Positions 45,359-63,547 of a stretch of 64,000 nucleotides of DNA are shown here, in pieces. The DNA is from a virus (taxonomy: Duplodnaviria > Heunggongvirae > Uroviricota > Caudoviricetes). The stretch lies in the IMG/VR virus record IMGVR_UViG_3300035678_000001. One strand, written 5' to 3'. Under the pieces are notes generated by a model. That model had not been told where the DNA came from, did no database searches, and saw only the letters and a program-made list of their open reading frames with translations. The position numbers and the translations under genes were made by a program. Positions within the stretch are counted from its first letter, which is position 1. Every line of letters begins with the position of its first letter.

Positions 45359-45814
45359 CTAGAAGGACCGCCACGCCGCAGTGACCGCCCGTGCAACTGG
45401 ACCTTGGCCGAAAGCGGTGGTGGCGTAGACCTCGATGATGAAGACGCTGTACGGCGCATCCGCCCCGGTGTCGGTGTGGGTGTCCATCAAGGTGCCGTAG
45501 CCGGTGTGCTGGTCCTGTGGCCGTGAAGCGGGTGTCAGTTGAGGGAAGTCAGTGGCCGGTCCCGTGCGGGTGGCGACCAGCGAACCTTTGGTCCAGTTGT
45601 CTGGATCGCTGAACGGGAAGTGGCCCGCGCTCGCGTTGTAGACGCTGCTGGTGTAGGAGATGACCGGCGGGCCATACGGCGGATCCCATCCCCAGACCCG
45701 TCGCGCTGCGTCGTTGCTGTCCAACGTCTGGCTTGCGTCGAGGTTGCGGATGATGCCTGGGGCCACGTTCGGCACCCCGGCAGGAACGACGGGAACACAG
45801 ACGACGTACGTCAC
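45359..45814 (-). CDS. Hypothetical tail-associated protein, ~151 aa
   Basis: GTG at 45814 forms a GTGA overlap with the stop of the 569-aa gene (confirmed). Confidence 0.45.
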   Translation of the reverse strand: MTYVVCVPVVPAGVPNVAPGIIRNLDASQTLDSNDAARRVWGWDPPYGPPVISYTSSVYNASAGHFPFSDPDNWTKGSLVATRTGPATDFPQLTPASRPQDQHTGYGTLMDTHTDTGADAPYSVFIIEVYATTAFGQGPVARAVTAAWRSF

Positions 45815-47520
45815 GCGAAGTCCACGCTCATGAGCAGGTCGGAGCCGGGGGTTGTCGAGCCGACCTGGGAGCAGTTGAACTTGAGGATGTCGCCCTTGGT
45901 GCAGGCCACAGAGATCGGGTCGAGCACCCCCAGGCTGACGCCATCGGGGATCGTGATGGTGCCGACATCGTTGGCGTAGGCACCGTTGTTCCACCGCTCG
46001 ACGGTGACGATCATGTCGGCACCGACAGGCGGGGTGTCGAGCCTGCCGACGATGTTGATGGCGTTGGAGTTGCGGGGCACTCGCAGCCCCGGCTTGATGA
46101 GGCTCGGGCTGGTCGAGATGTCACCAGCAGCGATGCCTTCGAGGGTGTAGGCCGTCGCGTTGCCCGTGGTCAGGTAGGCAAAGGTCATGTTGAGGTTGGT
46201 GAGCGTCCCACCCGAGAAGTTGCTCGACCCCGCGAGCAGGTCGTAGCCCGTCTCATCCACAGACAAGATCGCAGTGCCGGTGAACGACAGGGAGGTCAGG
46301 TGGGCGTCCCGGTCGGAGTCGAACTTGATGAGGACACCCACCCCGGCGACGTACGCCTGGGCGTAGCCGTTGTTCCCTGCGGGCCAAGGGAAGTTGTCCC
46401 ACGACCCCGAGACGGTGACCAGCCACGTCCCCGCACCGAGAGCGATGGTCGAGTTGCGGACGCTGTGCGGCACCTCGCCCACGGAGTAGAAGTCGTTCGG
46501 GTTGCTGACAGCCGGGTACGGACTCTGATCTGCGGGCACGGGGCCACCGCTGCACGCGAGATAGCCCGCAGCGCCTGCGACACCAGCGCCGCCTCCCCCA
46601 CCGCCACCGCCAGCAGCCGGGTAGGGCTGACCGTCGAAGGTCAGGCCGGTGGCTGTCACCCCGATGACGCGCTTGGTGCCGTCCACAGTGTCGTGCAGAG
46701 CCAAGGTCGTCGGAGCACCAGACGTGCTGGACGGCACGACCTCCAACTGATCGACCTTGATGACGCCGTGGTCGTCCTCGTCGGTGTGTGCCCCGCCACC
46801 GATGACGATGGAGCGCGAGGTCGGCGTGAAGTCACTCTTGCGAGCGGTGGCCTGCGCACCGATGACGATGTTGTTGCGGATGGTGTTGATGTCGGAGGGG
46901 GCAGGCACCCCCGTGCGGGTGTTGTAGCCGATGGCGATGTCGTACTTGCCGTTGGCCTGACCACCTCGGGTGAGCACCACGGAGTAGGGGCCGGTAGCGA
47001 GCGCCTGTTCACCGAGTGCCGTTGCGCCGATGGCCTGCGCTCGGGCGGTATGTCCGACAGCGGTCGTACCGAAGCCGCTCGCATCAGCCGCAGTGCCGAG
47101 TGCGGTGTTGTTGCCACCGTTGCCGATGCCGCTGTTTCCGATGACCAGCGCCTCGTCGCCAGCGGCATCGACTGGGCGAGCGGGGTTGATGTCACCACCG
47201 ATCACGGTGTCCGTCCCGGTGCCAGCCCGGAAGCCCGCGCCGCCGACCGCGCCCACGTCGATGTCCTCGAAGAAGAACTCCGGGTTGCTGCCGTGGGTCA
47301 CGCCGATGGTGACTCGCCGGGGCGTGTCGAGGTAGATGCTGATGACGCCGTTGGCGAAGACGTGCGGCATCGGGGTGACGGTCGTCGTCGTGTTCGTCAG
47401 GAAGACCTGATCGGTGATCGGGGTCGTTGTCCCAGGCTCGTACAGGGCCACCGAGCAGCCGGTAAGCACGTTGCCCTGTACGTCGAGGACCGGACGCAGA
47501 AGGTGTGCGCGGTCGGTCAT
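45811..47520 (-). CDS. Tail fibre-like protein 3 (569 aa), shared N-terminal anchor, Gly-rich ALG repeats, Gly run GGGGGGGAG
   Basis: MTDRAHLLRPVLDVQGNVLTGCSVALYEPGTTTPITDQVF. Repeats NTALGTAADASGFGTTAVGHTARAQAIGATALG. Confidence 0.6.
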   Translation of the reverse strand: MTDRAHLLRPVLDVQGNVLTGCSVALYEPGTTTPITDQVFLTNTTTTVTPMPHVFANGVISIYLDTPRRVTIGVTHGSNPEFFFEDIDVGAVGGAGFRAGTGTDTVIGGDINPARPVDAAGDEALVIGNSGIGNGGNNTALGTAADASGFGTTAVGHTARAQAIGATALGEQALATGPYSVVLTRGGQANGKYDIAIGYNTRTGVPAPSDINTIRNNIVIGAQATARKSDFTPTSRSIVIGGGAHTDEDDHGVIKVDQLEVVPSSTSGAPTTLALHDTVDGTKRVIGVTATGLTFDGQPYPAAGGGGGGGGAGVAGAAGYLACSGGPVPADQSPYPAVSNPNDFYSVGEVPHSVRNSTIALGAGTWLVTVSGSWDNFPWPAGNNGYAQAYVAGVGVLIKFDSDRDAHLTSLSFTGTAILSVDETGYDLLAGSSNFSGGTLTNLNMTFAYLTTGNATAYTLEGIAAGDISTSPSLIKPGLRVPRNSNAINIVGRLDTPPVGADMIVTVERWNNGAYANDVGTITIPDGVSLGVLDPISVACTKGDILKFNCSQVGSTTPGSDLLMSVDFA

Positions 47521-50500: not shown

Positions 50501-51314
50501 CCCGTGCGTTGCCGTAGATGTCCCGCACGTCCACGTACAGGTTGACCACCGCGAAGGGGCTCGGCTGGGGCTCGCAGCGCCAGATGCCGTCGTGCAGCAG
50601 CCCGCTGGCCGGGTTCTCCCGCAGGGCGTACTCGATGGACGAGCCCAGCAGGTCGGTGGCCGCGAGGAACGGCGACTCCTTGTTGGCCGCGTACAGGTCC
50701 GGGACGGTCTGCGGCACGTCGGCCAGCGCCTGCACCTTGTAGGCCGCGTCGAAGGCCCGCACGCCGAGCGAGAACGGCACCTGCTGGCCCGCGATGTTGA
50801 TGGGCGCGGTGCCGAACGGACGGGTCAGCACGAAGCGGATGCGGTTGGTGAAGAAGGGCCGCGCCTTGATCTCCTGGGTGACCCAGTGGCTGTCGCCCTG
50901 GTGCTGCGGGTGGACGTGGTTGGTGGCGTCCACAACCGGCAGCAGCCGTGAGGGGTTCGAGTCGGTGAAGGTCACCACGACCGGACGCCCGGCCTCGTTC
51001 AGGACCGGGGACCAGCCGCCCGTCTTGGGCGAGAGGAACTGGACCTCGGTGCGCTGCGGGAAGTGGGCGAGGTCGAAGGTCAGCCAGTTCATCCGGCGGA
51101 CGGTGTTGAAGTCGATCTCGATGACATCGCGCACGAGGTCACCGATGGCGCGGGGCGGCGTGGACCAGAAGCGGTCGCCGGAGGAGTGCCGGTGCCCGGC
51201 CAGGACGGCGTGATCGAGGGCTTCCAGCAGGGCGTCGAGCGGGGCTCCATCGACGTACAGCGGTGCCGGGCTCGCGGTCGGCGTCCCGAAGGTGGTGAAG
51301 GTCGGCTGGGTCAT
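47517..51314 (-). CDS. Large baseplate wedge / fibre-network protein (1265 aa) with a LamG/ConA-like domain
   Basis: Segment WWLGISLTVNATGAHRVFTCAAFHLDYDGTQFTLTSGG...YGLVASYDGSALSLKV resembles a concanavalin-like lectin/LamG fold. Lies downstream of baseplate J. The composition is not alpha-helical, so it is not a tape-measure protein. Confidence 0.55.
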   Translation of the reverse strand: MTQPTFTTFGTPTASPAPLYVDGAPLDALLEALDHAVLAGHRHSSGDRFWSTPPRAIGDLVRDVIEIDFNTVRRMNWLTFDLAHFPQRTEVQFLSPKTGGWSPVLNEAGRPVVVTFTDSNPSRLLPVVDATNHVHPQHQGDSHWVTQEIKARPFFTNRIRFVLTRPFGTAPINIAGQQVPFSLGVRAFDAAYKVQALADVPQTVPDLYAANKESPFLAATDLLGSSIEYALRENPASGLLHDGIWRCEPQPSPFAVVNLYVDVRDIYGNARVIDRLFMDPLYSGAHVTLYATEQEPTGEFVASDTPLAYPASYIEGVPPERRTNGFVFGTQASRIVLDNQAVQFRANKPWWLGISLTVNATGAHRVFTCAAFHLDYDGTQFTLTSGGVTVAVSPGATNGGLYGLVASYDGSALSLKVSRPDSTTTVALATAPTSINTPLNRLVVGTEEGGSQAPEFTLHTLVLKQAVLDTNEDAAFFEAPSSFALKPEYARDDDGRTNNAVVRYDKALTQPLTSPERPANITGFLGGPGDRYESLTWTPINRDFVLRRGNYDFDPTRARYIKCEFTNLTVQPFEVFTPITRKMKVFPADVLARFEADQAVRQTSVRLGGGAMTQNVLLGQSIKPITVDPAKGYTPTSAKYVSDPNAAQRLSTLSYLYRFTAWQTGATAPRFTHQQVHHYETLEVLHEQKIAFFVGLKGIRAYRKSYTANDDAGMYLDLFHDDWHISQSTWTLDGYGLAAPGLLGDRTEHQATSKAFKSVRRVRGIQFATTQSPPIELLPDPDFNDTELTDWTLAGDAFNPGDAGSNKPQVSNDYNTDIGTTVKVTRDTTSNPRTWDQVNAEFHTYSGLEGKHYVDVESQVVGIGFGGLRSKSFVVPSLAGRLYAAARVVSPTPLDQPLVVQIVASDGTVLAEEERLIAPNEVNEWYAAYTIGEGGAATPNTYDDVSAAHPTWAQAEGRTWDQLGFDTERLNLPVTARLIQRGAAHNSWYTDNLALFDDSIVWEFSNDGGKRFFPVYDIRNNPRGVFIFPDGPETAFVPGDSSGAPVGDTGGAPAPDGPRTYQQIEDLDPSPFLPTYGDLSVQTYAELGNVSASESEGGSGPVQAGTNPAYNPPHPDPTVGYDLVWRVTGYRAGLHVNSLAIRPWYDDLVSHQPAPEMPQISGPNIAPYDHYPRIEDDPHWKLWHKPIPEEWFFFQRQWLLLRTEVATTVTSVGVPTGYLNDTLLLSAGAPVIDNRPAELLSDGLVYDPPPGSLLGDAFIIPGSTP

Positions 51315-52828
51315 GAGTGGCTCACCGAGACAACACGGTTCTGGCCGTACGGCGACACGAGCAGCACCCCGTCGTTGGCGAAGCGGGAGGCGAGCACCTG
51401 GCGCGGAGTCAGCAGCGCCCGCTCGCCCGAGTAGGCGACCTGCTGGCCGTCGTAGTACGTGACGACCTCGTAGTCCTGGCCGAGCAGCACAGCCTCATCC
51501 GGTCCCTCGGCGTACGTCTTCACAGCCACGATCTCGGGGCTGTAGGACACCGTGGCGCCCTGGCTCTCGGAGAAGACCGGACGGGGCACGACATGGGGCT
51601 GCGTCGGCGGTGTGGGGTCCAGTGGGCTGGTCGGGTAGACGTTGGAGGAGATGGACACCTTCGGGGTGACCTTGGCCTCGACATCCCAGAAGGTGCTGTC
51701 GGCGGCGACCGCCGCGAACGGAATCGGGTTGTTGATCTCGACGCCGGACAGGTCGATGGTCGCGAGCGTCCCGGCAGGCTTGAGCACCTGCAAGACCCGG
51801 ATGGCCGACCACTCCTCGGCAGCCCGCTGACGAGTGCTGATCTCGGCCTGCTTGTAGGGCTTGACGATGAACTCTGCCCGCGAGCCGGTGCGCCCGATGA
51901 ACGCCTGCGACTCGTCCGGGTACATGATCTGGAACCACGAGTGGTGCTCGGCGTCCGCGAAGGTCGGGAAGTCATCGTGGACGCGGGTCCAGTCGCGGAT
52001 GACGCGCCCGTCGCTGTCGGTCGGAGCCGCCGCGATGTCGGACCAGGCGTGGCCCTCCAAGTTGGACCAGTGCGGGTAGAGCGCCTCGACCTGGGTCCAC
52101 GTGCGCGTCGAGCCAGCCGGGGTCGCGCCAGGCCGAGCCGACAGGGTGTCGTAGGGGATCAACTCCATCGCGCCCCACACGCCGTAGTCGTGGGTGAGGT
52201 CGTCGTACGACCGGCCACCGAAGATCGGCGGGATGAAGTTGCCCTGGCCGTCGAGCAGCCGCCAGATCTCGTACACGTCGCACTCGCACCCGAAGATCGC
52301 CTCGGCTGCCGTCTTGATCCCGGCCACCGTCGCGCCCAGCGGGATGGCCCGAGCCAGGTGCATGACCCGCTCGCGGTAGCGGGTGTCAGCGGCGTGCTGG
52401 GTGTCCCACTCGTCGCTGGTGAGGTTCGAGGTGAGCGGGTTGGCTTCGAGCCCCTCCTCCGGGTTGCGGTGCGCCGAGAACAGCGCGCCGTAGAAGGAGT
52501 CGAGGTCGTAGAAGTGCGTGCTCGTCATGGCCGACTGCAAGCGGTAGAGCAGGGTCCGCTTGCGCAACTGGCCCATGCCGGAGTCCCCGAGCAACGCCTT
52601 GAGGAAGCGCGTCAGGTGGCTCTGCGGGCGCAGGTCGTACAACTCCTCGAAGAAGTGGTCGAGGCGCCGGGCAACCTGGCGGTCCGGGACGAGCAGGTTG
52701 GTGCCGGTCAGCAGGCCGTCCGGGTTGGGTGCCGAGACGGTGATCTGGGCCGAGAAGATCGAGGACTGGGCGTAGCCCGATGCCGGGTCGTAGATCGAGG
52801 TGGCCTGGCTGAACGTCTGGGTGCTCAT
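51311..52828 (-). CDS. Baseplate-associated protein, 505 aa
   Basis: Internal ATG at 52828 (MSTQTFSQ...) forms an ATGA overlap with the baseplate J stop (confirmed). The N-terminal 180 residues of the track ORF are rejected. Confidence 0.55.
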   Translation of the reverse strand: MSTQTFSQATSIYDPASGYAQSSIFSAQITVSAPNPDGLLTGTNLLVPDRQVARRLDHFFEELYDLRPQSHLTRFLKALLGDSGMGQLRKRTLLYRLQSAMTSTHFYDLDSFYGALFSAHRNPEEGLEANPLTSNLTSDEWDTQHAADTRYRERVMHLARAIPLGATVAGIKTAAEAIFGCECDVYEIWRLLDGQGNFIPPIFGGRSYDDLTHDYGVWGAMELIPYDTLSARPGATPAGSTRTWTQVEALYPHWSNLEGHAWSDIAAAPTDSDGRVIRDWTRVHDDFPTFADAEHHSWFQIMYPDESQAFIGRTGSRAEFIVKPYKQAEISTRQRAAEEWSAIRVLQVLKPAGTLATIDLSGVEINNPIPFAAVAADSTFWDVEAKVTPKVSISSNVYPTSPLDPTPPTQPHVVPRPVFSESQGATVSYSPEIVAVKTYAEGPDEAVLLGQDYEVVTYYDGQQVAYSGERALLTPRQVLASRFANDGVLLVSPYGQNRVVSVSHS

Positions 52829-54630
52829 CCGGCGACCCCGAAGGAGTTCTGCGCCTTGATGCGCGGGGTGTTCACCGTGGCGCCGCCGCCCACCGAGTCG
52901 AAGACGGGGATCTCGTTGTCCGCGAACGGGATGTCGATGGCGCGGCCCTCGCTGTTGGCGTAGGTGTGCGTCACCACGCCCTTGACGACCCGCTGGATCG
53001 CGTAGTTGGCCGAGTCGTCGGTCTGGTGCAGGAAGCGCACGTTGTCTACGCCCTGCACGTTGTGGACGAACTGCAACACGTCGCTGACCTGCAAGACGGT
53101 GCCGAAGACGAAGTTGACGAGCAGGGCGGCGATGGCCTCGCGGATCTGCTCGTTCACCGCGTTCTGGCTGTAGCCCGGCGAGTAGACGACAGCGAGGTTG
53201 AAGCGCAGGCCGATCTGCTTGGCCTGGTGGACCTTGGTGTCGGTGCCCATCAGACGGGCTGCCTCGATGTTGCTCTGCACCGAGAGCACCACGTCGTTGT
53301 AGGTGTAGTCGCCGCTGTCCCCGATGACGAAGATCGCTCCGCTGGGCGGCAGGTTGGTCGCCTTCCACTCCAAGCCGAACAGCGAGGTGGGGGTGTAGCC
53401 GAAGGACGAGTCCTCGTGAACGACCCAGTAGTCGGTGCCGAGGTGGTAGGTCGGCTGCCCCTCGACCGAGAGGGTGGGCGGCACGGACAGGATCGGGCCG
53501 TACGCCAGCGGGATGAAGACGTTGTTGACCGCAGGGGCGGTGTCGTCCTCACGGACGAAGCGCAGTGACGAGTAGAGGTCGCCGTACGCCGGGCTGAACC
53601 GCTTGTTCTGCGAGAAGATCACCGACTGCACGGCCTCGCGGGCGCGCTGCCCGGCCACGTACACGTCGATGCGGTTGAAGATGTTCTGGCTCGGGTCGTT
53701 GCGGCTGGCCTTGGGCTGATACTCGAAGTCGAGGTCCATGATGGCGCCCTCGAAGGGGTGGATCTCGCCGTCCGCGCTCGGGTACGAGGTGTTGAGCGCC
53801 TGCACGAACGGCGGGTTGGCTCCGGCGTCGAACTTGTAGTCGTGGCCGGACAGCAGCACGTCACCCGCGTCGATGTTCGGACCGAAGACGGCGCCCTCGG
53901 GGTAGATGAACGCCGCCCCGGCCAGGGTGCTGACTGCCGAGCCTCCGACCACCTGCACCTGCTCGCGGTGGCGCTTGGAGGAGCCGATGACGTTGGCGTT
54001 GAACACGTTGTCGTCGTCGTTGGCGATGCCGAGGTACATCTGCTCGACACCAGCCAGGTTGCGGAACGCCGTACGACGCCAGCGGGCGCGCAGGGCGGTG
54101 TCGGACTCCTGCGGGGTGCCGCCCGTGATCGGCTGGATGTTGGTCACGTCGGTGATGCCCTGCACGGGCGTCAGGAGGTTGGTCAGCAGGCCCGCTCCGA
54201 TGTTGCCGGAGACGCCGCCCAGGACCGCCATGACCGGCACCGAGATGGACCGCACGCCGTTGTCCATGAACGCCGGGACGACCGTGACGACGGTGACCGT
54301 GCCGGTGCTGACCTGGGTGTTGGTCGGGATGATGAGCGGGATCGTCAGGTCGCCTTCGCCCCGCGAGAAGATCACCGCGCCGCTGGCCCGCCGGGCGCCG
54401 TAGCGCACCATGCCGAACAGGGCCACGAACTCATCGAGGTCCGCCTCGGACTTGGTGTCGATGTCGTACTGGTAGGTGATGAGGTGCCGGTCGATGTACG
54501 CCTCGGCGGCAGACTCGCCCACCACGTCGAGGATCTTGCGGGTGGTCGTGCCAGTGGAGGTGTCGAGGTCAGGGTCGGTGACGGCGAGCGTCTGCCGCAT
54601 CTGGGAGACGACGCTGTTCAAGTCGGGCAT
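52825..54630 (-). CDS. Baseplate J-like protein (gp6/gpJ/XkdT family), 601 aa
   Basis: Size, the N-terminal region (...ADLDEFVALFGMVRYGARRASGAVIFSR...) and its position directly after a gp25/W-like gene. Call by recall. Confidence 0.65.
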   Translation of the reverse strand: MPDLNSVVSQMRQTLAVTDPDLDTSTGTTTRKILDVVGESAAEAYIDRHLITYQYDIDTKSEADLDEFVALFGMVRYGARRASGAVIFSRGEGDLTIPLIIPTNTQVSTGTVTVVTVVPAFMDNGVRSISVPVMAVLGGVSGNIGAGLLTNLLTPVQGITDVTNIQPITGGTPQESDTALRARWRRTAFRNLAGVEQMYLGIANDDDNVFNANVIGSSKRHREQVQVVGGSAVSTLAGAAFIYPEGAVFGPNIDAGDVLLSGHDYKFDAGANPPFVQALNTSYPSADGEIHPFEGAIMDLDFEYQPKASRNDPSQNIFNRIDVYVAGQRAREAVQSVIFSQNKRFSPAYGDLYSSLRFVREDDTAPAVNNVFIPLAYGPILSVPPTLSVEGQPTYHLGTDYWVVHEDSSFGYTPTSLFGLEWKATNLPPSGAIFVIGDSGDYTYNDVVLSVQSNIEAARLMGTDTKVHQAKQIGLRFNLAVVYSPGYSQNAVNEQIREAIAALLVNFVFGTVLQVSDVLQFVHNVQGVDNVRFLHQTDDSANYAIQRVVKGVVTHTYANSEGRAIDIPFADNEIPVFDSVGGGATVNTPRIKAQNSFGVAG

Positions 54631-55058
54631 CAGGCACCTACCGTCAGAGGGATCGTCACGCGCTGGTTGGCCTGCGTGACGAGGACGACGAACACGGTCA
54701 CCGTGTCGAAGTTGATCTGGACCCGGATGTCCTGAATGGCCCGCACCACGTCGCTGGTGTCGTACCGGGAGGCCCGCTGGGCGGTGAAGTCACCAAGCAC
54801 CTGGGCGCGCTGGACGAGGACGTAGTTCTGCAAGACCCGGTTGGCCTCGCTCTCCACCAGCAGCGCCACCTCCTCGGTCAGGGTCTGGCCGATGTAGGAC
54901 CGGATGATCGAGCCCCAGTCCCGGTGGAAGCGGTCGTTGCCGAGCGGCTCGATCAGAGCACACCGAAGATCCTGGGTGATGCGAGCCGCCCCAGAGATCG
55001 TCTTGTGCCCCGCAGGCGTAACCACGAGGTCACCGTCTGCGAGCGCCAACTGCTTCAT
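54630..55058 (-). CDS. gp25/GPW-like baseplate wedge protein, 142 aa
   Basis: IEPLGNDRFHRDWGS matches the GPW_gp25 signature (GERVMRPDFGS). Preceded by the late leader motif. Confidence 0.6.
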   Translation of the reverse strand: MKQLALADGDLVVTPAGHKTISGAARITQDLRCALIEPLGNDRFHRDWGSIIRSYIGQTLTEEVALLVESEANRVLQNYVLVQRAQVLGDFTAQRASRYDTSDVVRAIQDIRVQINFDTVTVFVVLVTQANQRVTIPLTVGA

Positions 55059-55094: not shown

Positions 55095-58000
55095 TCAGAC
55101 AGGCTGCGGGGTGCGTCGGGGCCAGAACTGCCCCTCCCCGGTGGGCATGGGCTGGAAGAAGAACCGGAGCAGGTTGCCGATCCGGTCGTCTGGGATCCCG
55201 GTGAACGCGATCATGGTCGCCAGGCCGTGCGGGAGCAGGTTCGCCGCAAACCGGGCGCTCGCGTTCATCACGATGCGCTCCGTGGAGCGGCCTCGGGAGA
55301 TCGACACCAGCGCCTTCGGCCCGGCCAGATCGAAGGTGCCGACACCGCCCGAGGTGCCTCCCGTGTCCCGTCCGTCCCCGGTGAACCGCTGGCCTCGGGT
55401 CATCCAGCGCAGGATGTAGGCGACCTGCATGTGGGCCGTCATGTGACCGACGCCAGCCGGGGACCAGACGACCTCGACCGGCTGGGCGGTGATCGTGACG
55501 CCATAGTCGAAGCGCCCGAACAGGTCCGTGAAGTGCCCGGTCGGCAGGTAGTGCTTGTACGAGCCTGCGTCGGCCCGCATAGAGGCCCGCCGCTCGATCC
55601 CGTTCGGGACCAGCGAGCCGTGGCCGACGCCGTTGGAGTGGTGGTGCATGATCGGCACGTGGTCGATCTCGACCCGGACGTTGGACATGCCGTTGGACCC
55701 GTTGGGGATCAGCAGCGGCGCGATCAACGGGAAGTGCTGCTCGTAGAAGAACTGGCCCGAGCCCCACTTCATGTAGACGCCGCTGGGCCGGTCGATGTCC
55801 TTCATGTGGCCGACGCCGTGGCTGGTCGCGTAGAGCAGACCGGGGTCGATGGAGAAGCCACCAATGCCATGCGAGGTGATGAGCCCAGCCTCGAAGTGGA
55901 CCGGGCCGTGCTGGTAGCCGAGCATGTGACCGACGCCGTGCGGACGGATCTCCATGTCTCGGCGGTCGGGCAGGTAGTTGGTCGGCCAGCCACCCACGCC
56001 GTGTGAGACGCCAGAGATCCGCTGGGGCGCACCCAGCGTCGGAGAGAAGCCCCCGATGCCGTCAGCCTCGAACTCCCCGAACTTGAGGAAGACCACCGTC
56101 GAGCGACCAGCAGCCAGCGCCGCGAGATAGACCTTGCTCGACAGGTAGCCGTAGCACTGGGCTCCCGCTGTGAAGCGCCCGTTGTTGAACGAGTTGGTCC
56201 GGGCGTACATGTAGTCGGGCGAGAACTGGCGAGCGAACACACCCTGCGGCCCGGTCGGGCGACTGGGGAACCCGAGGGCAGGGTCGCCATCAGCGAGGTA
56301 GCCAGGGAAGGCCCGGCAGCCCGCGTTGGCGATGGCGACCATCTCGTACGGAAAGGTGAAGGTCGAACGGCCAGCCATCGTTGAGGGGCCACCCGAGTAG
56401 GGCGGGAAGCCGTCGCGGTGGCTCTCGGTCGGATGGTTGTTGGCGAAGCCCACCCGCGATGAGAGGTAGATGACCACGCCGGTCATCTCGTTGTCCTTGC
56501 GGTACGGGTTCAGCCGTGGGTCGTACTGGTGGTAGTAGGACTGGAACCGCCAGATCGAACCGGCCCGTACGACGAAGGCGAAGGGCGGCTTGTCCATCTC
56601 GGTGCCGCGAGCCGAGCCGTTGCTGACCAGCGCCAGCAACTTGGCGTTGTCGCGCATCGAACCGACGCCGTTGCTGGTCGCAGCGATGCGCAGAGTGCCG
56701 GTCGTGCGGATGTCGTTGACGTGACCGACGCCAGCCATCGGGACGGCGAACATCAGCGCCGGGCCGAGGGACCAGTGCGCGACACCGCGCATGGTGATGT
56801 TCGGCATCAGGAAGGTGCCGGACAGGTAGGAGTAGCCGCCACCCCGTCCCGCGCTGGTGCTGATGACGTGCCACGGGGAGCCCATGTAGATGGAGCCGCC
56901 AGCGCGTCCTGGGCTGGTGCCAGCGAAGTAGATCCGACTCGACAGGTAGACGTTGACGTGCGCCTGTGCGTACGCCGTCGAGGTGACGTGGAAGGGCGCC
57001 CCGAGGTACGCCGCCACCGTGGCTCGGCCAGCCGAGATCGAAGCGACTCGGAAGGGCGAGGACAGGTAGTTCTTGGTGCAGGCTGCACGGCCCGCAGAGG
57101 TAAACGAGATGCGCTGCGGGGTCGAGAGGTAGGCCAGGCCACCAGCGCGTCCTGCCGAGGTGCTGGTGACGTGCCAGGGCGAGCCCAGGTAGTTGCGGTT
57201 GAAGCCCGCCACGCCAGCCGGGTTGATGACCAGCCTCACCGGAGTCGCCATGTAGTTTCGGCTGTAGGCGGCGATGCCGTTGGAGGTCATCGTGAAGCGG
57301 ATCGGCGTGCCGAGGTAGTCCACCATCGTGGCGCGACCGGCAGCGGTGCTGCTGACGGCATACGTCTCGGTCTGGCGGAAGGTGTCGGCTGCGACACCAT
57401 CGCTGCGAGCAGCCATGTGGGTTGTAGAGCCAGGGCTCATCGTGACCGTCGATGCACCGACCGCACCGAGAGTCAGCCCCTGCTCCGCACCCGGCCCCTC
57501 CTTGGTAGCCAGCCACACGTCGTTGCTCTGGTACGGCGGCTTCGACGGGTAGATGACCAGGCTGTTGGCCCGCAGGATGACGGTCAGGAAGTTCTTCGAG
57601 CAGCCAGCCGCACCAGCAGAGATCTGGTTGCGAGGCTTGATGGTGACGCCCAACGACAAGATCGGAGAGGCGACACCGACAGGCCGGGTCTGAACGGTGT
57701 AGCGGTTGCCCATCGTCATGGAGACGGAGGCGGCTCCGGCAGGCGTGCTGGCAAGCGAGTTCGGACCCTGCGGGGTGGTGAGGGTGATGTCCTGTGGCTG
57801 CGGGGCACTGGGGACCACCACGATGTCGCCCTGGCGGCTGAGTACCGACATGCCGAAGGTGACGGTGCTCTTGCCTGCCGCTGTGGAGGCGAGGGTCCGC
57901 AACGGAGGCGGGTCGGTATTCGTCCGGTCGCTATCGCCATAGCCAACAGCGCCGTACGCCCTGGTGCCGTATCCACCAGACACCACCGTCGTCACATCAG

Positions 58001-58613
58001 GACCCGTGGCGCTGACACCGGAGACGCGGTGGTTTCCACTCGCGCCACCAGTGGCAGCGGTGAACCCGACGTACACGATGTCGGGTGCGGTGCATCCAGT
58101 CCAGTCGCCCAGGTCCACGCCGTCGCGGATGCGCTTGACGGTGTAGGTGTTCGGCGCGGTCTTGGTGAACGTCAGCGAGAAGGCGTGTGCGCCCGTGACA
58201 TACGAGTTCGGGTGGTACTCAGACTTCTGCGTCGTCTGGCCGCTGGGGTAGGGGTGCGAGGTCCAGTAGAAGCCGGGGCTGCCAGGGTCGTAGGTAGCCA
58301 TGCGGAACGCAGAGCCGTAGATGCCATCGGCAGCCAGGGACCCACCGCCAGTCAGCGACATGCCGCTGCTGGGAACCCCGGAAGCCGGGTCCCAGAGGAA
58401 CAGCGTGCCGCCGTCAGCCGAACCGTCGTACGTGGTCGTGAAGTTGATGGTCAGGCCGTCGAGGATGAGCGACCTAGCCGTGTAGAAGGCCGCCCCGGAC
58501 TGACTGGCAAGGGCGCTGGTCAGTCGAACGGCTGCTGCCTCGAAGACAGCGTTGCCGAAGACAGACCAGCCAGCAGCGTCGGTCTGTGGGTTGCCGAGGA
58601 AGGTGGTGGTCAT
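55095..58613 (-). CDS. Giant tail/baseplate protein (1172 aa): N-terminal L-type-lectin/ConA-like domain plus two families of tandem ~20-aa repeats
   Basis: N-terminus AAFYTARSLILDGLTINFTTTYDGSADGGTLFLWD is lectin-like. Repeat family 1 is NYLxSPxxVxSTSAGRAxx (12 or more copies). Repeat family 2 is SHGVGHM / SNGVGHG / PAGVGHM. Sits where a hub/spike gene is expected, upstream of gp25/W. Confidence 0.6.
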   Translation of the reverse strand: MTTTFLGNPQTDAAGWSVFGNAVFEAAAVRLTSALASQSGAAFYTARSLILDGLTINFTTTYDGSADGGTLFLWDPASGVPSSGMSLTGGGSLAADGIYGSAFRMATYDPGSPGFYWTSHPYPSGQTTQKSEYHPNSYVTGAHAFSLTFTKTAPNTYTVKRIRDGVDLGDWTGCTAPDIVYVGFTAATGGASGNHRVSGVSATGPDVTTVVSGGYGTRAYGAVGYGDSDRTNTDPPPLRTLASTAAGKSTVTFGMSVLSRQGDIVVVPSAPQPQDITLTTPQGPNSLASTPAGAASVSMTMGNRYTVQTRPVGVASPILSLGVTIKPRNQISAGAAGCSKNFLTVILRANSLVIYPSKPPYQSNDVWLATKEGPGAEQGLTLGAVGASTVTMSPGSTTHMAARSDGVAADTFRQTETYAVSSTAAGRATMVDYLGTPIRFTMTSNGIAAYSRNYMATPVRLVINPAGVAGFNRNYLGSPWHVTSTSAGRAGGLAYLSTPQRISFTSAGRAACTKNYLSSPFRVASISAGRATVAAYLGAPFHVTSTAYAQAHVNVYLSSRIYFAGTSPGRAGGSIYMGSPWHVISTSAGRGGGYSYLSGTFLMPNITMRGVAHWSLGPALMFAVPMAGVGHVNDIRTTGTLRIAATSNGVGSMRDNAKLLALVSNGSARGTEMDKPPFAFVVRAGSIWRFQSYYHQYDPRLNPYRKDNEMTGVVIYLSSRVGFANNHPTESHRDGFPPYSGGPSTMAGRSTFTFPYEMVAIANAGCRAFPGYLADGDPALGFPSRPTGPQGVFARQFSPDYMYARTNSFNNGRFTAGAQCYGYLSSKVYLAALAAGRSTVVFLKFGEFEADGIGGFSPTLGAPQRISGVSHGVGGWPTNYLPDRRDMEIRPHGVGHMLGYQHGPVHFEAGLITSHGIGGFSIDPGLLYATSHGVGHMKDIDRPSGVYMKWGSGQFFYEQHFPLIAPLLIPNGSNGMSNVRVEIDHVPIMHHHSNGVGHGSLVPNGIERRASMRADAGSYKHYLPTGHFTDLFGRFDYGVTITAQPVEVVWSPAGVGHMTAHMQVAYILRWMTRGQRFTGDGRDTGGTSGGVGTFDLAGPKALVSISRGRSTERIVMNASARFAANLLPHGLATMIAFTGIPDDRIGNLLRFFFQPMPTGEGQFWPRRTPQPV

Positions 58614-58689
58614 CAGTACGACACCCCTCCCCGCACGAACTGCTTCCAGAGCCCAGCGACCTGAGCAGTGGACGCGAAGTTAGACATGG

Positions 58690-59169
58690 CTAGTGCGGGT
58701 CCGGTGGACCGAGGTTCTTGGCCCAGACCTCGAAGATCGGGTCCGATGCGAATAGAGATCTCGTGCCTGCTGCACCAACCTTGTTGAACAGTCGAACAGT
58801 CACCAGGCCCGCTGTGATGTCGCCAGCGACCAGAGTGAGCATCGGCGCTGCACCAATGGCTGCAAGCCGGGAGGCTTCGCCATACCAGCCACCAACGCCG
58901 TTCGGCTTCTGCACCGCCGTCTTGCTGCTGAACCATGTCACTGCCGCAGCCGAGACGAGCGTGGCGGCGTCGAGGTTTCCCGAGACGGCTGCATCGCTAT
59001 GCCACACGGCGTTGATGCCCACTTGGATGACATCTCCCGCCTGGGCTTCCAAGGTCAGATCGAGCGAGGTATCGAGAGCGGCATAGGAAGTGTTGGACAA
59101 CGAGAAGTTGCCCGAGGATCGGGTAGCGAACTTGAAGTTGCGCGAGCGCATGTGCCGGGGGTAGCCCAT
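58690..59169 (-). CDS. Hypothetical tail-associated protein, 159 aa
   Basis: Track ORF with non-biased composition. Confidence 0.5.
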   Translation of the reverse strand: MGYPRHMRSRNFKFATRSSGNFSLSNTSYAALDTSLDLTLEAQAGDVIQVGINAVWHSDAAVSGNLDAATLVSAAAVTWFSSKTAVQKPNGVGGWYGEASRLAAIGAAPMLTLVAGDITAGLVTVRLFNKVGAAGTRSLFASDPIFEVWAKNLGPPDPH

Positions 59170-59909
59170 CAGACACCTACCAGTCGGCCAGCGAAGCGCC
59201 GAGCGCCGATGGTGACGCCGCTGCTGGTGTCAACGTAGGTGAAGAAGCGCATCTGGTCCCCTGCAACACACTTGCCCATCCGGCGAAAGGTCAGCGTGGC
59301 TCGGTTGGTCGATGCACCTGAGGCGATGGTGCGCCAGTGGAAGTTGGCGCTGTCTACGTTGGCCGAGTCGATACCTACGCCGATGTTGACGCTCGTGATC
59401 GTGTTGTCCGCGTTCGGACGCCACGACCCCTCGAACTCGTAGAGGCCGGTCTGCGGGACAGTGTAAATGCCCGTCGTCGGGTTGTAAGCGTTGCTCGGAT
59501 CAGTGACCTCGTTGTCGCAGATCACGGTGTTGAACGCCTGTCCAGTCACACCGACAGTGCCAACCCCGGTGGCCTCGAAGTACGTGGTCTGCGCTACCGG
59601 CAGCAGGTCAAGGGTGGTCGGGCCATGCACCCAGGGCACGTCCTGGTTGTGCTGGCGCTTCGTCGTCCCCTCTTGCTCCCGAAGGATCGTCGCCGTGACA
59701 GCACCAGGCGTGTGGGCGGTGATGTACGCGATCTCCGGCTCACCGTAAAGGCCATCCGGGTCGAAGGTGATCGGGAAGTGCTGAGTGCTTCCGATGCCCA
59801 CCACCGCGACCAGCGCGTTGGACTGGAAGGTGGTGGCCGTTGCCGTGAGCGGGTTGTCTTCGACCAACCCACCGATGAAGTTCTGACGGACCCGCAGTTC
59901 GTTCGCCAT
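59169..59909 (-). CDS. C1q/TNF-like jelly-roll domain protein, 246 aa (putative receptor-binding or decoration protein)
   Basis: C-terminus YNPTTGIYTVPQTGLYEFEGSW...FHW...AGDQMRFFTYVD has a C1q-like strand pattern. Confidence 0.5.
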   Translation of the reverse strand: MANELRVRQNFIGGLVEDNPLTATATTFQSNALVAVVGIGSTQHFPITFDPDGLYGEPEIAYITAHTPGAVTATILREQEGTTKRQHNQDVPWVHGPTTLDLLPVAQTTYFEATGVGTVGVTGQAFNTVICDNEVTDPSNAYNPTTGIYTVPQTGLYEFEGSWRPNADNTITSVNIGVGIDSANVDSANFHWRTIASGASTNRATLTFRRMGKCVAGDQMRFFTYVDTSSGVTIGARRFAGRLVGV

Positions 59910-60259
59910 CAGGCAGGCACCATCCCTCGGTTGCTGGTGCCGTGGACCTGCGTCGAACCTCCGGCGAGGGAGTACGCCACGGTGAAGTAGAGGTAGGGGT
60001 CGGTGGCGTCTCGGATGAAGGAGTAGGTCCCGCCGACAGCACTCGTCGTGGTGGCGACCTTGCGAGCATCTACCTGCCGATAGAGGTCCACGGTGGCTCC
60101 CACGACGGGCGCTCCGTTGGTGTCGTAGACGTGCCCGGAGATCGCCTTGGTCGCTCCGCTAATGGTCGTCCCGTAGTCGCCGCCGAGAACGGTGACGGCC
60201 TGGTTCCTGACCTGACGAGAAGCCAGAACCTGCGAGGCAGCGAGGACGAGGGCAGCCAT
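59909..60259 (-). CDS. Small prealbumin-like (CarboxypepD_reg-like) domain protein with an N-terminal hydrophobic segment, 116 aa
   Basis: ISGHVYDTNGAPVVGATVDLYRQVDARKVATTTSAVGGTYSF. The ATG at 60259 forms an ATGA overlap with the stop of paralogue C. Confidence 0.5.
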   Translation of the reverse strand: MAALVLAASQVLASRQVRNQAVTVLGGDYGTTISGATKAISGHVYDTNGAPVVGATVDLYRQVDARKVATTTSAVGGTYSFIRDATDPYLYFTVAYSLAGGSTQVHGTSNRGMVPA

Positions 60260-61263
60260 TACTCGTACCTCATCAGCAGACCACCAGTGGTCGAGCCGTT
60301 GTTCGTCGTGAAGTACGAGGTGTTGGGTGCTCCACCGACCTGGCAGCACGACAGGTAGGTGTGCTGTGCGCCGTACATCGGAACCGAGATCGTCTGCCCA
60401 GCAGTGAAGTCACCGTTCCAGCAGGCCAGCAGTCCGAGCATCGGACCTTCGACCCCCGCGCCGGTCTGCACTGGGATCTGGTAGGTGATGACGTTGGCTC
60501 CGACGACACCCGAGCCCGACATGGATCCGGGGTAAGCGCCAGGGATGAAGCCGTCAGCGTTGTGGACCTGACTGGTGGTGAACGACAGGATCTGGAAGCC
60601 CGACTGCTGACCCTGCGACGAGGCGTAGATGCCGTACCAACTGCCGAAGGCGAAGACCACCCCGTCGCCGTTGTAGGTGCCGTCCAAGTTGCGGGTGCGC
60701 TCGATGGAGAAGACGGCAGGCACGGGGATGCGTGTCGCGCTGCCGGAGAGGTTGCTGGTGGCGATGGCTACGTCAATGCCGAGGGCGGCGTTGATGCTCG
60801 ACCCGTCACCGCAGAAGTAGGAGTGCGTGTCGGTGCGAGAGACACCGCTGTCGGTAATGCCGCTGCCGGTTGCGGAGATGGCAAGCATCGAGCGACGGGT
60901 GCCGACGAGCCCGGTCAGCGTTCCAGCACCGTTGGTGCCAGTGCCGACCGTGATCCACATGGTCTGGCCCCACACGCCAGCGCGGGTGCCGAGGCCACCC
61001 ACCATGTAGCCGTACTCGACCTTGATGAAGACCGGGCGACTGGCCTGCAAGGCATCCGAGAAGCGATAGATCTCGTAGCCGATGCTGGGGGTCGAGACGG
61101 TAGGGAACGAGGTCAGTGCGAGCGTGGCCCAGTTGATCTGACCCGTGTCGGCGGTCTGGACCAGACCAACGGCCTGCAAGCCCGCTGCGATGCTTGCGCC
61201 CCAGGCGCGGTAGGCCGCGTCAGTGGTGACATCCCACGAGACGACGGATGCAGATGTGGTCAT
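60259..61263 (-). CDS. Paralogue C of a three-member tandem family (334 aa)
   Basis: Shares LVQTADTGQINW, GYEIYRF.D.LQA.RP.FIKVEYG, GTGT.GAG.LTG, CGDGSSI, ERTRN.DGT.NGDGVVF and a C-terminal LLMRYE with paralogues A and B. Confidence 0.6.
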   Translation of the reverse strand: MTTSASVVSWDVTTDAAYRAWGASIAAGLQAVGLVQTADTGQINWATLALTSFPTVSTPSIGYEIYRFSDALQASRPVFIKVEYGYMVGGLGTRAGVWGQTMWITVGTGTNGAGTLTGLVGTRRSMLAISATGSGITDSGVSRTDTHSYFCGDGSSINAALGIDVAIATSNLSGSATRIPVPAVFSIERTRNLDGTYNGDGVVFAFGSWYGIYASSQGQQSGFQILSFTTSQVHNADGFIPGAYPGSMSGSGVVGANVITYQIPVQTGAGVEGPMLGLLACWNGDFTAGQTISVPMYGAQHTYLSCCQVGGAPNTSYFTTNNGSTTGGLLMRYE

Positions 61264-61652
61264 GAAGGCACCAGTCCTCGGTCACTGACCCCGTGGATCT
61301 GGGGGTTGGTCGCTGTGGTGTACGAGATGATGTAGTAGGCCAGCGAGTCGAGAGAGTCTCGCGGGAAGATGTAGTGGCCGTTGATGTCGGCGGTGGTCTG
61401 GGCCACCACCTTGTCGTCGTACTGGCGCACCAACTTCACGATGGAGTTCGGCACGACGACGCCTGCGATGCCATAGATGGTCCCAGCGATGGTCTTGCTG
61501 CCGACGTAGATCGGCAGGTCACCTGGGTTCACAGCAGCCAGGTTCGGACGCGGCGACGTGACTGTGCGGCTCTTGCTGGTGAGCGGCGTGGGCGACAACG
61601 TGACCGTGCGCGTCCGGGTAGCAAGCGGCGTCTGCTGGGTGTTGTACGCCAT
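61260..61652 (-). CDS. Small prealbumin-like (CarboxypepD_reg-like) domain protein, 130 aa
   Basis: GTIYGIAGVVVPNSIVKLVRQYDDKVVAQTTADINGHYIF. The ATG at 61652 forms an ATGA overlap with the stop of paralogue B (confirmed). Confidence 0.5.
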   Translation of the reverse strand: MAYNTQQTPLATRTRTVTLSPTPLTSKSRTVTSPRPNLAAVNPGDLPIYVGSKTIAGTIYGIAGVVVPNSIVKLVRQYDDKVVAQTTADINGHYIFPRDSLDSLAYYIISYTTATNPQIHGVSDRGLVPS

Positions 61653-62596
61653 CACTCGAACCTCATCAGCAGACTGCACCAGTTACGAGCACCAGAGTTG
61701 TTCTCGGTGGAGGTTCCTGGCATCGAGCCACACACACCAGGGAGGGCGAGGTAGGTGCGAGCAGCGCCGTTCACGACAAGGGAGACGGTCTGGTAGTTGT
61801 TGATCCCGCCCTGCCAGCCCAGCACGGTGCAAGCCTGGGCTTCGGGCTTGGGCATGGCGACGAGGAACGGATAAGCAACGATGGTCGTGCCATCGACGCT
61901 GGGTGCGTTGTAGTCGTTCGAGGGGTACGCGATGGGCCAGTAGAAGTTGTTGCCTACCACCGCGTTGTTGATGAACGAGATGTAGTTGTAGGTGCTGAAA
62001 TAGACGCCATCCTGGCGGCTCGCCAGGTGCATCCCGAAGACCACACCGTCCCCGTTAGGCGTGTTGTCTGCGTTGCGAGTCCGCTCGACAAACCAGAACA
62101 ACACGCCGGGGTTGGCGTTGGGGTTGATGTTCGTGTAGGGCGGCAGCGCGATGGCGATGCTCGACCCGTCACCAAAGAAGTAAGCAGGCTGGGCGTAGGG
62201 GGAGTTGTTGGGGTTGCCCAGTGCCGACGACAGCGAAGCCATGTCTGAACGGGCAGTCAACTGCAACCCAGTGAGGTTTCCAGCGCCGTCCGTGCCGGTG
62301 CCGACGAACAGAGCGAAGCGAGGATAGGTCGTCCCGTTGTTCGTGGTGCCGTAGATGACCTTGATGAAGATGGGCCGGGTGGCTTGCAGGGTGTCGTTGA
62401 AGCGCCAGATCTCGTAGCCGAAGGTCTGGGCACTCGAAGTCGCCGTGACCGTCGTGGTCGTCCAGTTGATCTGGCCGGTGTCTGCGGTCTGAACAAGGCC
62501 GATGCTCGACAGCGCCTGGGAGATCGCAGAGCCCCACGCCTTGATGAGCGCGTTGCTCGCGTTGCTCAACCGGATTGTCGTAGCGATGGCGGTCAT
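61652..62596 (-). CDS. Paralogue B (314 aa)
   Basis: Same conserved blocks. C-terminal LLMRFE. Confidence 0.6.
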   Translation of the reverse strand: MTAIATTIRLSNASNALIKAWGSAISQALSSIGLVQTADTGQINWTTTTVTATSSAQTFGYEIWRFNDTLQATRPIFIKVIYGTTNNGTTYPRFALFVGTGTDGAGNLTGLQLTARSDMASLSSALGNPNNSPYAQPAYFFGDGSSIAIALPPYTNINPNANPGVLFWFVERTRNADNTPNGDGVVFGMHLASRQDGVYFSTYNYISFINNAVVGNNFYWPIAYPSNDYNAPSVDGTTIVAYPFLVAMPKPEAQACTVLGWQGGINNYQTVSLVVNGAARTYLALPGVCGSMPGTSTENNSGARNWCSLLMRFE

Positions 62597-63547
62597 CTAC
62601 TCCCACCTCAACAGGGCACAGTGGTTCGTCAGCCCGGTGGGCGTGAACTTGATCGGGATGTACGTGTGCGCTGACCCCAGCACGGTGGTGCTTATCGGAA
62701 CTGCCTGGGTGAAGTCAGCATTGAAACCGACGAGCATCGCGTGAACGAAGGTCTGCTTCCCTGCCTGCACCAGCATGGGGAAGACCGTGATGTCCGCGCC
62801 ATCGACTGCGTTTCCCCAGTCGTGCCCAGGTGCGAGGGCTACCGAGTAGCGGGTGCGCTCATAGGCCACCTGCCGGTCGAAGATGAGGTAGTTCTCGCAC
62901 CAGACCGTGGTGGGCTGACTGCTGGTGCTGCCGAACTGCGCGTCCGCACGCGATGCGTTGAAATAGCCCTGGGTGTATCCGACATCGCCTCCGTACGACG
63001 TGCGCCACATCACGAGGCCATCCCCGTTGATGGTGCCGTCAGCGTTGCGAGTGCGGTCGATCACAAAGAAGATCTGTGGTGCGCTGTTGCTACCGGACCC
63101 ACCGTTGGCGTAGCCGAGCAGCATCATCGCGTAGGTGCCATCGCCTGCCCAGATCGAGGGCTGCACAGTGGAGGTGATGAAGCCCGCGTACAGGGCTCGG
63201 CGCGTCGTGAGCAGCCCGGTGATGTTCCCCGCGCCGTCTGTGGCGGTGCCTGCGGTGAACCACATGATCGGACAGTTCGCGCCGATGTACGACGAGCCCG
63301 AGCCGTACTCCACCTTGATGAAGACCGGCTTCGTTGCCTGCAACGAGTCGTTCATCCGCCAGATCTCGTAGCCGTTGTTGGAGTTGCTACCCCCGGTGTA
63401 CGAAATCGTCGTCGCGTCGATCTGACCTGTGTCTCCGGTCTTCACCAACCCGATAGAGGAGAAGGCAGCAGACATGGCTGCAACCCACGCACGGAGAGCC
63501 GCCGTGGATGTGATGTTCAGGTTGATCGACTGCGCGACGGTGGTCAT
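62597..63547 (-). CDS. Paralogue A (316 aa)
   Basis: Same conserved blocks. C-terminal LLRWE. Confidence 0.6.
   Translation of the reverse strand: MTTVAQSINLNITSTAALRAWVAAMSAAFSSIGLVKTGDTGQIDATTISYTGGSNSNNGYEIWRMNDSLQATKPVFIKVEYGSGSSYIGANCPIMWFTAGTATDGAGNITGLLTTRRALYAGFITSTVQPSIWAGDGTYAMMLLGYANGGSGSNSAPQIFFVIDRTRNADGTINGDGLVMWRTSYGGDVGYTQGYFNASRADAQFGSTSSQPTTVWCENYLIFDRQVAYERTRYSVALAPGHDWGNAVDGADITVFPMLVQAGKQTFVHAMLVGFNADFTQAVPISTTVLGSAHTYIPIKFTPTGLTNHCALLRWE

Follow-up and report, generated by a model that had tools for sequence, protein, structure and literature searches.

A rare lectin-headed protein encoded ahead of gp25 in an uncultured contractile-tailed phage: a candidate modular adhesion fibre rather than a central spike

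Does the gene that stands directly ahead of the gp25-like and baseplate J genes of a contractile-tailed phage encode the central hub or spike of the tail, or a different kind of tail protein? This question is raised by a stretch of 64,000 nucleotides (nt) from a virus of the class Caudoviricetes (IMG/VR record IMGVR_UViG_3300035678_000001), here called the window. The whole gene lies at 55095..58613 on the minus strand and, according to the open reading frame (ORF) listing and its translation, encodes a protein of 1172 amino acids (aa) followed by a stop codon. An original prediction, made from the DNA sequence without database searches, had noted that the gene directly precedes the gp25-like and Baseplate_J genes and had therefore placed its product in the slot of the hub or spike. 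The position was confirmed; the role was not. Most likely, the 1172-aa protein is not the central hub or spike of the tail. On balance, the analysis favoured a modular fibre or appendage at the periphery of the baseplate that serves host adhesion (receptor binding) and carries an exchangeable head with a lectin fold. This reading was preferred because of the synteny with Bixzunavirus-like phages, the linkage of the gene to a cassette of fibre genes, the varying downstream gene, the mosaicism of the family, the variability of the head, the lectin fold and the hairpin repeats. Its product belongs to a familiar class of phage proteins, of which it is a rare variant that had not been annotated.

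The 1172-aa ORF is a genuine gene with homologues. It starts with ATG, and the Shine-Dalgarno-like sequence GGGAGGGG is located directly upstream. The GC content at third codon positions (GC3) of this frame was 0.86, as compared to 0.57 for the overlapping ORF on the opposite strand; thus, the 1172-aa frame was taken to be the correct one. The antisense ORF opposite the gene encodes 711 aa (56529-58664, plus strand). The GC content of the window DNA was 63-69%, and the many long antisense or off-frame ORFs of the window are artefacts of high GC. The metagenomic contig Logan SRR11679235 (153.9 kb; locus L003) encodes a 100% identical 1172-aa protein, together with a DNA polymerase of the PolIII-alpha type, a ribonucleotide reductase, helicases and the baseplate of a contractile tail. 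The closest cultured relatives of the baseplate J protein belong to the Bixzunavirus myoviruses of Mycobacterium and the Stormageddonvirus myoviruses of Gordonia, and share only about 31% identity with it.

The N-terminal part of the protein (57999..58613, minus strand; residues 1-205) is an exchangeable module with an L-type (legume-like) lectin fold. When the full-length protein was compared with Pfam, Lectin_leg-like scored a sub-threshold 17.5 bits. The domain in isolation reached 23.8 bits on the same family (cut-off 24) and also touched Lectin_legB and Lectin_L-type_dom with borderline scores, and the domain of the relative P0003, which is 78% identical, exceeded the cut-off with 26.4 bits. 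In an exhaustive phmmer search, residues ~7-208 matched about 20 proteins. Lectin_L-type_dom and Lectin_leg-like were present at the matched region in three of the five relatives scanned (P0020, P0024 and P0031), and PF18483 scored up to 109 bits at the matched region of such relatives. A profile built from 17 sequences of the N-terminal domain (alignment A4) was run against the PDB and matched 7elv (6.9e-25), pea lectin (1.3e-10) and ERGIC-53 (2.6e-10), as well as VIP36 and peanut lectin. The matches to solved L-type lectins ranged from E 7e-25 to 1e-9 and spanned positions 5-189 of 197, i.e., the whole domain, so that the lectin-like N-terminus of the original prediction was upheld. A Foldseek search with a poor full-length model ranked ERGIC-53 and VIP36 first (E about 0.01), a weak result that is consistent with a lectin fold.

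Like the known L-type lectins (PF18483; PF03388, i.e., ERGIC-53 and VIP36; PF00139), the module extends over the whole domain of about 200 aa and retains both the 'ADG' motif (S65-A66-D67-G68, with Asp67 aligned to the sugar-binding Asp of the family) and the 'VGF(T/S)AATGG' strand (V182-G190, here 'VGFTAATGG'). Unlike them, the 1172-aa protein gave single-sequence Pfam scores at or just below the cut-off and differs at the metal site. The Ca2+/Mn2+ ligand set of pea lectin (Glu119, Asp121, Asn125, Asp129 and His136) was not retained in the alignment of the two proteins. Here, 'AVEFDTF' of pea lectin aligned with 'AFRMATY', placing Arg104 at the position of Glu119 and Ala106 at that of Asp121; the loop that follows (the Asn125 loop in pea lectin) is shortened, the alignment of this loop itself being uncertain. 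Since the canonical ligands are missing, any sugar binding would bypass the classical metal site of legume lectins. Further differences to known L-type lectins are its attachment to the body of a phage fibre and the lack of relatives detectable by tblastn in cultured-phage records. No papers were found in literature searches on L-type or legume lectins as domains of phage fibres or of receptor-binding proteins. Judged from the profile matches, the assignment of residues 1-205 to the L-type lectin fold is sound.

The family to which the protein belongs is very rare. A word-indexed search recovered four family proteins among 5.8 billion clusters. In 1.84 billion representatives, the exhaustive phmmer search detected 34 relatives, and the body is common to 12 of these. 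No match to the gene was obtained by megablast and tblastn in 50,697 phage records, and no family of PHROGs was matched by the full-length protein. A profile search with the family alignment (A2) returned only three members, which were already known, and pattern-based scans of IMG/VR and GTDB genomes, which were based on the family or a single protein and are much less sensitive, yielded no confirmed loci. Alignment A2 revealed a common layout: a variable or absent N-terminal domain, a YGxRxYG linker, degenerate hairpins with PS..P..D modules, an array of variable length, an optional middle region and a C-terminal core.

The relatives are mosaics with regard to this layout. The N-terminal domain is of the L-type lectin type in the 1172-aa protein and a LamG domain in P0005 (Pfam match), with which the head of P0010 could be aligned (alignment only). 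Other N-terminal domains are present in P0009, P0011 and P0013, and none in P0002, P0006 and P0007. The lectin head is all that P0003 shares, its body being a different one; in P0004, the shared part is limited to the pre-repeat region and the repeats, and P0002 shares the body without the head. When P0003 and P0004 were compared for a common alternative C-terminal body, no significant similarity was found. Windowed conservation was uniform over the body (35-50% identity) and highest in the last 12 residues (67%), the head being the variable part. In the alignment, the N-terminal domain had an occupancy of 0.3-0.5 and comprised unrelated folds. Thus, the N-terminal module appears to be swappable among the relatives. 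In locus L005, a 228-aa Laminin_G_3 protein (9315-10001) is encoded by a separate gene directly upstream of, and abutting, the gene of the headless P0004 (10001-12136), and a fragment of a similar LamG gene lies ahead of P0009 in locus L009 (1-303). The stand-alone LamG protein of L005 and the LamG head of P0005 were collinear with 23% identity, but not significantly similar (E 0.22); that the genes of head and body were fused or split is therefore suggested only by the Pfam family they share and by their position.

Downstream of the head, a linker rich in Gly and Tyr (57894..57998, minus strand; residues 206-240) contains the motif YGTRAYG. Ahead of the body, YG(T/S)R(S/A)YG is present in six of the 11 aligned proteins (the 1172-aa protein, P0005, P0006, P0009, P0010 and P0013), and this motif is diverged to YGGGAYG in P0004; its occurrence is independent of the type of N-terminal domain. 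The linker is followed by degenerate hairpin units and a duplicated PS module (57318..57893, minus strand; residues 241-432), with matches to a hidden Markov model (HMM) of the repeat unit at residues 241, 287, 331 and 420. The module 'PSxPxxxD(I/V)xL..GP', which the original prediction had missed, is present in two copies (residues 262-286 and 351-378), and the family alignment contains a conserved block F.IY.S.PPY...DVLLA in this region. The canonical repeat array YLGSPxRVTSTSAGRAxxxx(N) occupies residues 433-615 (56769..57317, minus strand). Motif scan and unit HMM delimited eight full units of 20-21 aa each (residues 433-595) and one partial unit, with scores of 26-36 bits per canonical unit. 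Thus, the first of the two repeat families proposed was real, while its count of 12 or more copies was too high. The number of canonical copies varies between homologues.

The region after the canonical array (56082..56768, minus strand; residues 616-844) is dispensable in part of the family. Its occupancy in the alignment was 0.5-0.7, it is missing from P0008, P0010 and P0011, and the AlphaFold confidence was low. Next comes a second, degenerate array, in which about five units carry the motif (S/P)(H/D)G(V/I)G(H/G) (55779..56081, minus strand; residues 845-945). GVG[HG] motifs were found at positions 852, 872, 893, 916 and 933, spaced by 17-23 residues, with isolated copies at 995 and 1054. 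The S[HN]GVGH motifs described for the C-terminal third are therefore present, while their status as a second repeat family did not hold. They correspond to the turn motif of the canonical unit, since canonical units show the turn variants TSNGIA, NPAGVA and TSAGRA, since 'TSAGVGH(L/M)T(A/N)YLGSP' lies within the canonical array of P0002 and since the unit HMM aligned to residues 860-875; within the second array, it also aligned to 912-922. In total, degenerate copies were located by the unit HMM at 241, 287, 331, 420, 642, 823, 860 and 912. Outside the seed region, seven matches of at least 0.9 bits were obtained (241-922), whereas shuffles of the same sequence yielded 0.085 on average and 2 at most. 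The protein thus contains a single repeat family, regular in its central array and more eroded in the copies that flank it. In homologues, D, N, R, A or S take the place of the His residues of 'HGVGH', and a His-metal ladder resembling that of gp37 was rejected on account of these non-conserved positions. Tandem Repeats Finder detected no tandem repeat at the DNA level in the gene; therefore, the unit duplications are old.

The C-terminal part of the protein (55098..55778, minus strand; residues 946-1172) ends with YG(D/N)(L/M)L...GQxWPRR..PV. Together with residues 881-945 it constitutes the region present in nearly all relatives, and residues 946-1172 were found in all eight type-A relatives. 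The C-terminal region is rich in His and Gly; residues 946-1172 had no match among Pfam, PHROG or PDB sequences. AlphaFold modelling of the full-length protein with a four-sequence alignment resulted in a mean predicted local distance difference test (pLDDT) value of 29.8, and this model was unusable except for hints of an N-terminal beta-sandwich. For residues 215-1172 (18 sequences), the mean pLDDT was 40.3, and only the repeat array was moderately confident: block means for residues ~475-595 were 58-81 and mostly 65-81. In this model, the array is composed of regular beta-hairpins of 7+7 residues, which turn tightly at 'AG' and are joined at '(G/S)(S/T)P'. With the body model, no Foldseek match in the PDB fell below E=1, and searches of the PDB with the sequence or a profile of the body gave matches at chance level only. 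Foldseek matches of the body to S-layer, ribosomal and tailspike proteins (tailspike E 2.4) were rejected as noise.

The genomic context of the family was compared across loci. In all six loci with enough upstream sequence (window/L003, L005, L007, L008, L010 and L011), the family member was the last gene of a mobile fibre cassette. Besides the family member, this cassette comprises paralogues of 300-355 aa, mostly paired with CarboxypepD_reg-like proteins of about 115-135 aa, a short fibre and a protein of about 156 aa; the linkage was complete in L003, L005, L008, L010 and L011 and partial in L007. The next gene downstream was gp25-like in the window, L007 and L008, encoded a CHAP/PG_binding lysin in L009, and was a homologous gene of 566/575 aa in L005 and L004 (where it follows the gene of P0003). 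Since the family member stays with the cassette and the downstream neighbour varies, the gene is linked to the fibre cassette and not to the baseplate core.

A candidate for the hub is encoded elsewhere. A protein of 947 aa (L003 532-3375, which corresponds to window coordinates 65239-68082, beyond the window; phrog_2810 1.6e-85) is homologous to a virion protein of 948 aa of Bixzunavirus. It showed weak matches to NlpC/P60 (CwlO, E 0.003) and DPBB, and its orthologue in Bixzunavirus Tonenili possesses clear endolysin-type domains; it is likely the hub or tail lysin. On contig L003, its gene lies about 6.6 kb upstream of the 1172-aa gene. Eleven genes intervene: a 208-aa gene, a homologue of the Gp80 'fiber I' gene, two genes of about 100 aa, three paralogues of 314-334 aa, two of them each with a CarboxypepD_reg-like gene of about 116-130 aa behind it (five genes), and the genes of a 246-aa and a 159-aa protein. 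The module is syntenic with that of Tonenili and of Gordonia phage RedWattleHog, with the order hub/lysin, fibre-like proteins, gp25, J, DUF7297 and a minor tail protein of about 1260 aa. In both cultured phages, two 'minor tail proteins' with PHROG matches of the tail-fibre type are encoded between the hub homologue and gp25, and a gpV-like spike is absent. These slot proteins (488 aa and 251 aa in Tonenili; gp51 and gp52 in RedWattleHog) thus occupy the same slot as the 1172-aa protein; the slot contains eleven genes plus the 1172-aa gene in the window phage, as compared to two genes in the cultured relatives. An hhalign comparison of the family with the 488-aa and 251-aa proteins revealed no relationship (probability 0.1%). 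With the 947-aa candidate eleven genes upstream and fibre-like proteins in the slot of the cultured relatives, the inference of a hub or spike from the position of the gene was not supported.

How might such a fibre be built? The lectin-fold head would be the distal, glycan-binding end and could engage a polysaccharide of the cell envelope of an actinobacterial host. The hairpin repeats may stack into an extended, possibly trimeric shaft, with a length set by the copy number, and the conserved C-terminal part may mediate oligomerisation or the attachment to the baseplate or to a partner. Attachment via the C-terminus would invert the polarity relative to classical tail fibres, which have a conserved N-terminal virion anchor and a variable C-terminal receptor-binding tip. 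In the family studied here, by contrast, the N-terminal domain is swapped or absent, the body is conserved and the C-terminal tail is the most conserved part. The family resembles classical tail fibres in its mosaic domain exchange (P0003, P0004, P0002) and in having neighbours that match tail-fibre PHROGs, C1q and the Gp80 fibre I protein. As regards the shaft, the order of strand, Gly turn, strand and loop in the monomer model resembles that of the triple beta-spirals of adenovirus fibre, reovirus sigma1 and PRD1 P5, in which repeats of 15-20 aa set the length by their copy number. The period of 20-21 aa and the lack of sequence similarity differ, and the likeness is one of pattern only, in a monomer model. 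With regard to the head, tail proteins of actinophages with ConA-like or LamG (Laminin_G_3) modules likewise carry a beta-sandwich module of the lectin superfamily, and LamG occurs among the relatives of the 1172-aa protein (P0005 and the 228-aa gene of L005); here, however, an L-type lectin proper is located N-terminal to a rare body.

Several points weigh against an adhesion fibre. Arg104 and Ala106 replace metal ligands of L-type lectins, making carbohydrate binding by the predicted head less certain than its fold. The polarity was deduced solely from the conservation pattern, and classical fibres are arranged oppositely. The gene directly adjoins gp25, which is compatible with a structural role in the baseplate, and the AlphaFold monomer models were poor (mean pLDDT of 29.8 and 40.3), with no fold match for the body. 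The lectin-tipped fibre mentioned in the original prediction nonetheless stayed a reasonable reading.

The main rival is a structural one, which we consider clearly less probable: the body would build the outer baseplate, with a function like that of T4 gp7 or gp10, or anchor the other fibres of the cassette, and the head would serve protein-protein contacts or act as an accessory module instead of being the primary receptor binder. The proximity of gp25 and J fits this reading, as the three genes are probably co-transcribed, given that there is no promoter or terminator between them. It is also in line with the large conserved body and the strictly conserved C-terminal tail, with the loss of the canonical metal ligands of the lectin, and with the invariably terminal position in a cassette whose several smaller fibre-like products have to be attached somewhere. 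However, no gp25 or J gene follows in the sequenced stretch of L005 and L009, no similarity to J, gp7-like or DUF7297 proteins was detectable, and head swapping as well as variation of the repeat number are typical of host-range determinants. An enzymatic function is improbable. In this case, the protein would be a tail-associated depolymerase or glycan hydrolase, with the lectin fold as the targeting module and the conserved C-terminal part as the catalytic one. Folds of the ConA type often accompany glycoside hydrolases and lyases, and alginate lyases and glucanases followed the lectins in the Foldseek list of the poor full-length model. The conserved C-terminal region with its many His and Gly residues would suit a catalytic domain, but the candidate His residues are not conserved. 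Moreover, no enzyme family was found in Pfam, PHROGs or PDB sequence searches, and a signature of right-handed beta-helix depolymerases was absent, the Foldseek tailspike match being non-significant (E 2.4).

A central spike or central fibre, located below the hub on the axis of the tail as a lectin-tipped puncturing or sensing device in place of gp5, gpV or VgrG, is quite improbable. What speaks for it is chiefly the position directly upstream of the gp25-like and J genes in three phages (window, L007 and L008), as the slot ahead of gp25 is that of gpV/gp45 in P2- and Mu-like myoviruses, and the beta-rich, repetitive character that the protein shares with such spikes. The spikes of the gp5/gpV/VgrG type end in a C-terminal triple beta-helix with repeats of about eight residues, often with a metal-binding His apex. 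The repeats of the 1172-aa protein, on the contrary, are hairpins with a period of 20-21 aa instead of beta-helix turns of 8 aa, and their His residues are not conserved among homologues, which argues against the beta-helix needle that had been suggested. The absence of an OB-fold or lysozyme signature, already stated in the original prediction, was corroborated: for Phage_base_V, gp5_OB, VgrG, gp27 and Phage_GPD, no Pfam match at E<=0.1 and no PHROG match at E<=0.01 was obtained with the 1172-aa protein. In addition, family members without adjoining gp25 exist (L005, L009), the hub/lysin homologue is encoded elsewhere, and the cultured relatives have fibre-like proteins in the slot upstream of gp25. 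Finally, the variable N-terminal head and repeat number are unlike the conserved axial spikes.

Within the favoured reading as a host-adhesion fibre, a more specific version was considered only tentatively. According to this version, the body represents a previously undescribed fibre fold of beta-hairpins of about 20 residues with its C-terminus in the baseplate, onto which plug-in N-terminal heads are placed, either fused or encoded separately. If this were true, the protein would be the first phage receptor-binding protein with a true L-type lectin domain, and the family would serve uncultured actinophages as a natural 'head-swap' system for their host range. If the fibre reading is right, one conserved shaft-and-anchor body taking varied lectin-type heads would be a compact natural case of host-range modularity. 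It would be useful for engineering the host range of actinobacteriophages, and the L-type lectin fold would be added to the folds used by phage adhesins. As the phage is uncultured, the practical weight of the finding is limited. As a caution, gene order alone is a poor basis for the label 'hub/spike', as Bixzunavirus-like myoviruses carry fibre genes ahead of gp25.

The other members of the cassette lie upstream of the 1172-aa gene on the same strand. Its partners are encoded at 58690..59909 (minus strand), namely a protein of 159 aa and a short fibre of 246 aa that has a C1q-like head. The 246-aa protein (59169-59909, minus strand) showed a weak C1q match and matched phrog_35360 (tail fiber). 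Both proteins adjoin the family member in L005 and L010, and the 246-aa type is also present in L008 and L011. Its first ~100 aa are conserved across the loci and its C-terminal head differs; in the L008 version, the head is similar to the C-terminal end encoded by the 208-aa gene that neighbours the hub gene. The 246-aa protein is a short fibre of classical polarity whose heads are swappable. Further upstream, three paralogues of 314-334 aa (62597-63547, 61652-62596 and 60259-61263, minus strand) share 34-37% mutual identity and had no Pfam or PHROG match. Two of the three are each followed by a CarboxypepD_reg-like gene of about 116-139 aa (61260-61679 and 59909-60349, minus strand). Pairs of this kind recur at differing copy number in L005, L008 and L010, and look like an expandable set of fibres or adaptors. 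Homologues of Gp80, the fiber I protein of podophage GP4, start the fibre cassette. The window phage has one copy (L003 4012-4440, just past the window end), and three tandem copies are present in L005 (3611-5193).

Downstream of the 1172-aa gene, the order is gp25-like gene, Baseplate_J gene, DUF7297 gene and the gene of a 1265-aa minor tail protein, as in Tonenili and RedWattleHog. The gp25-like baseplate protein of 142 aa (54630..55058, minus strand) matched phrog_2669 (1.6e-26) and phrog_43, baseplate wedge. The baseplate J (gp6-like) wedge protein of 601 aa (52825..54630, minus strand) matched Pfam Baseplate_J (5.8e-22) and phrog_6 (1.4e-42). The DUF7297/phrog_2813 protein of 505 aa is encoded at 51311-52828 (minus strand), with a start codon ATG at 52828 that fits both its homologues and the called gene. 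The ORF listing contains an over-extended version of this gene (51311-53368, 685 aa, GTG start); when started at ATG-52828, the gene overlaps the end of the baseplate J gene by 4 nt. Downstream of the 1265-aa minor tail protein, a 569-aa protein (45811-47520, minus strand) matched the YadA_head repeats of Pfam with 25.8 bits (cut-off 25), i.e., a motif resembling that of trimeric autotransporter adhesins in a phage tail gene.

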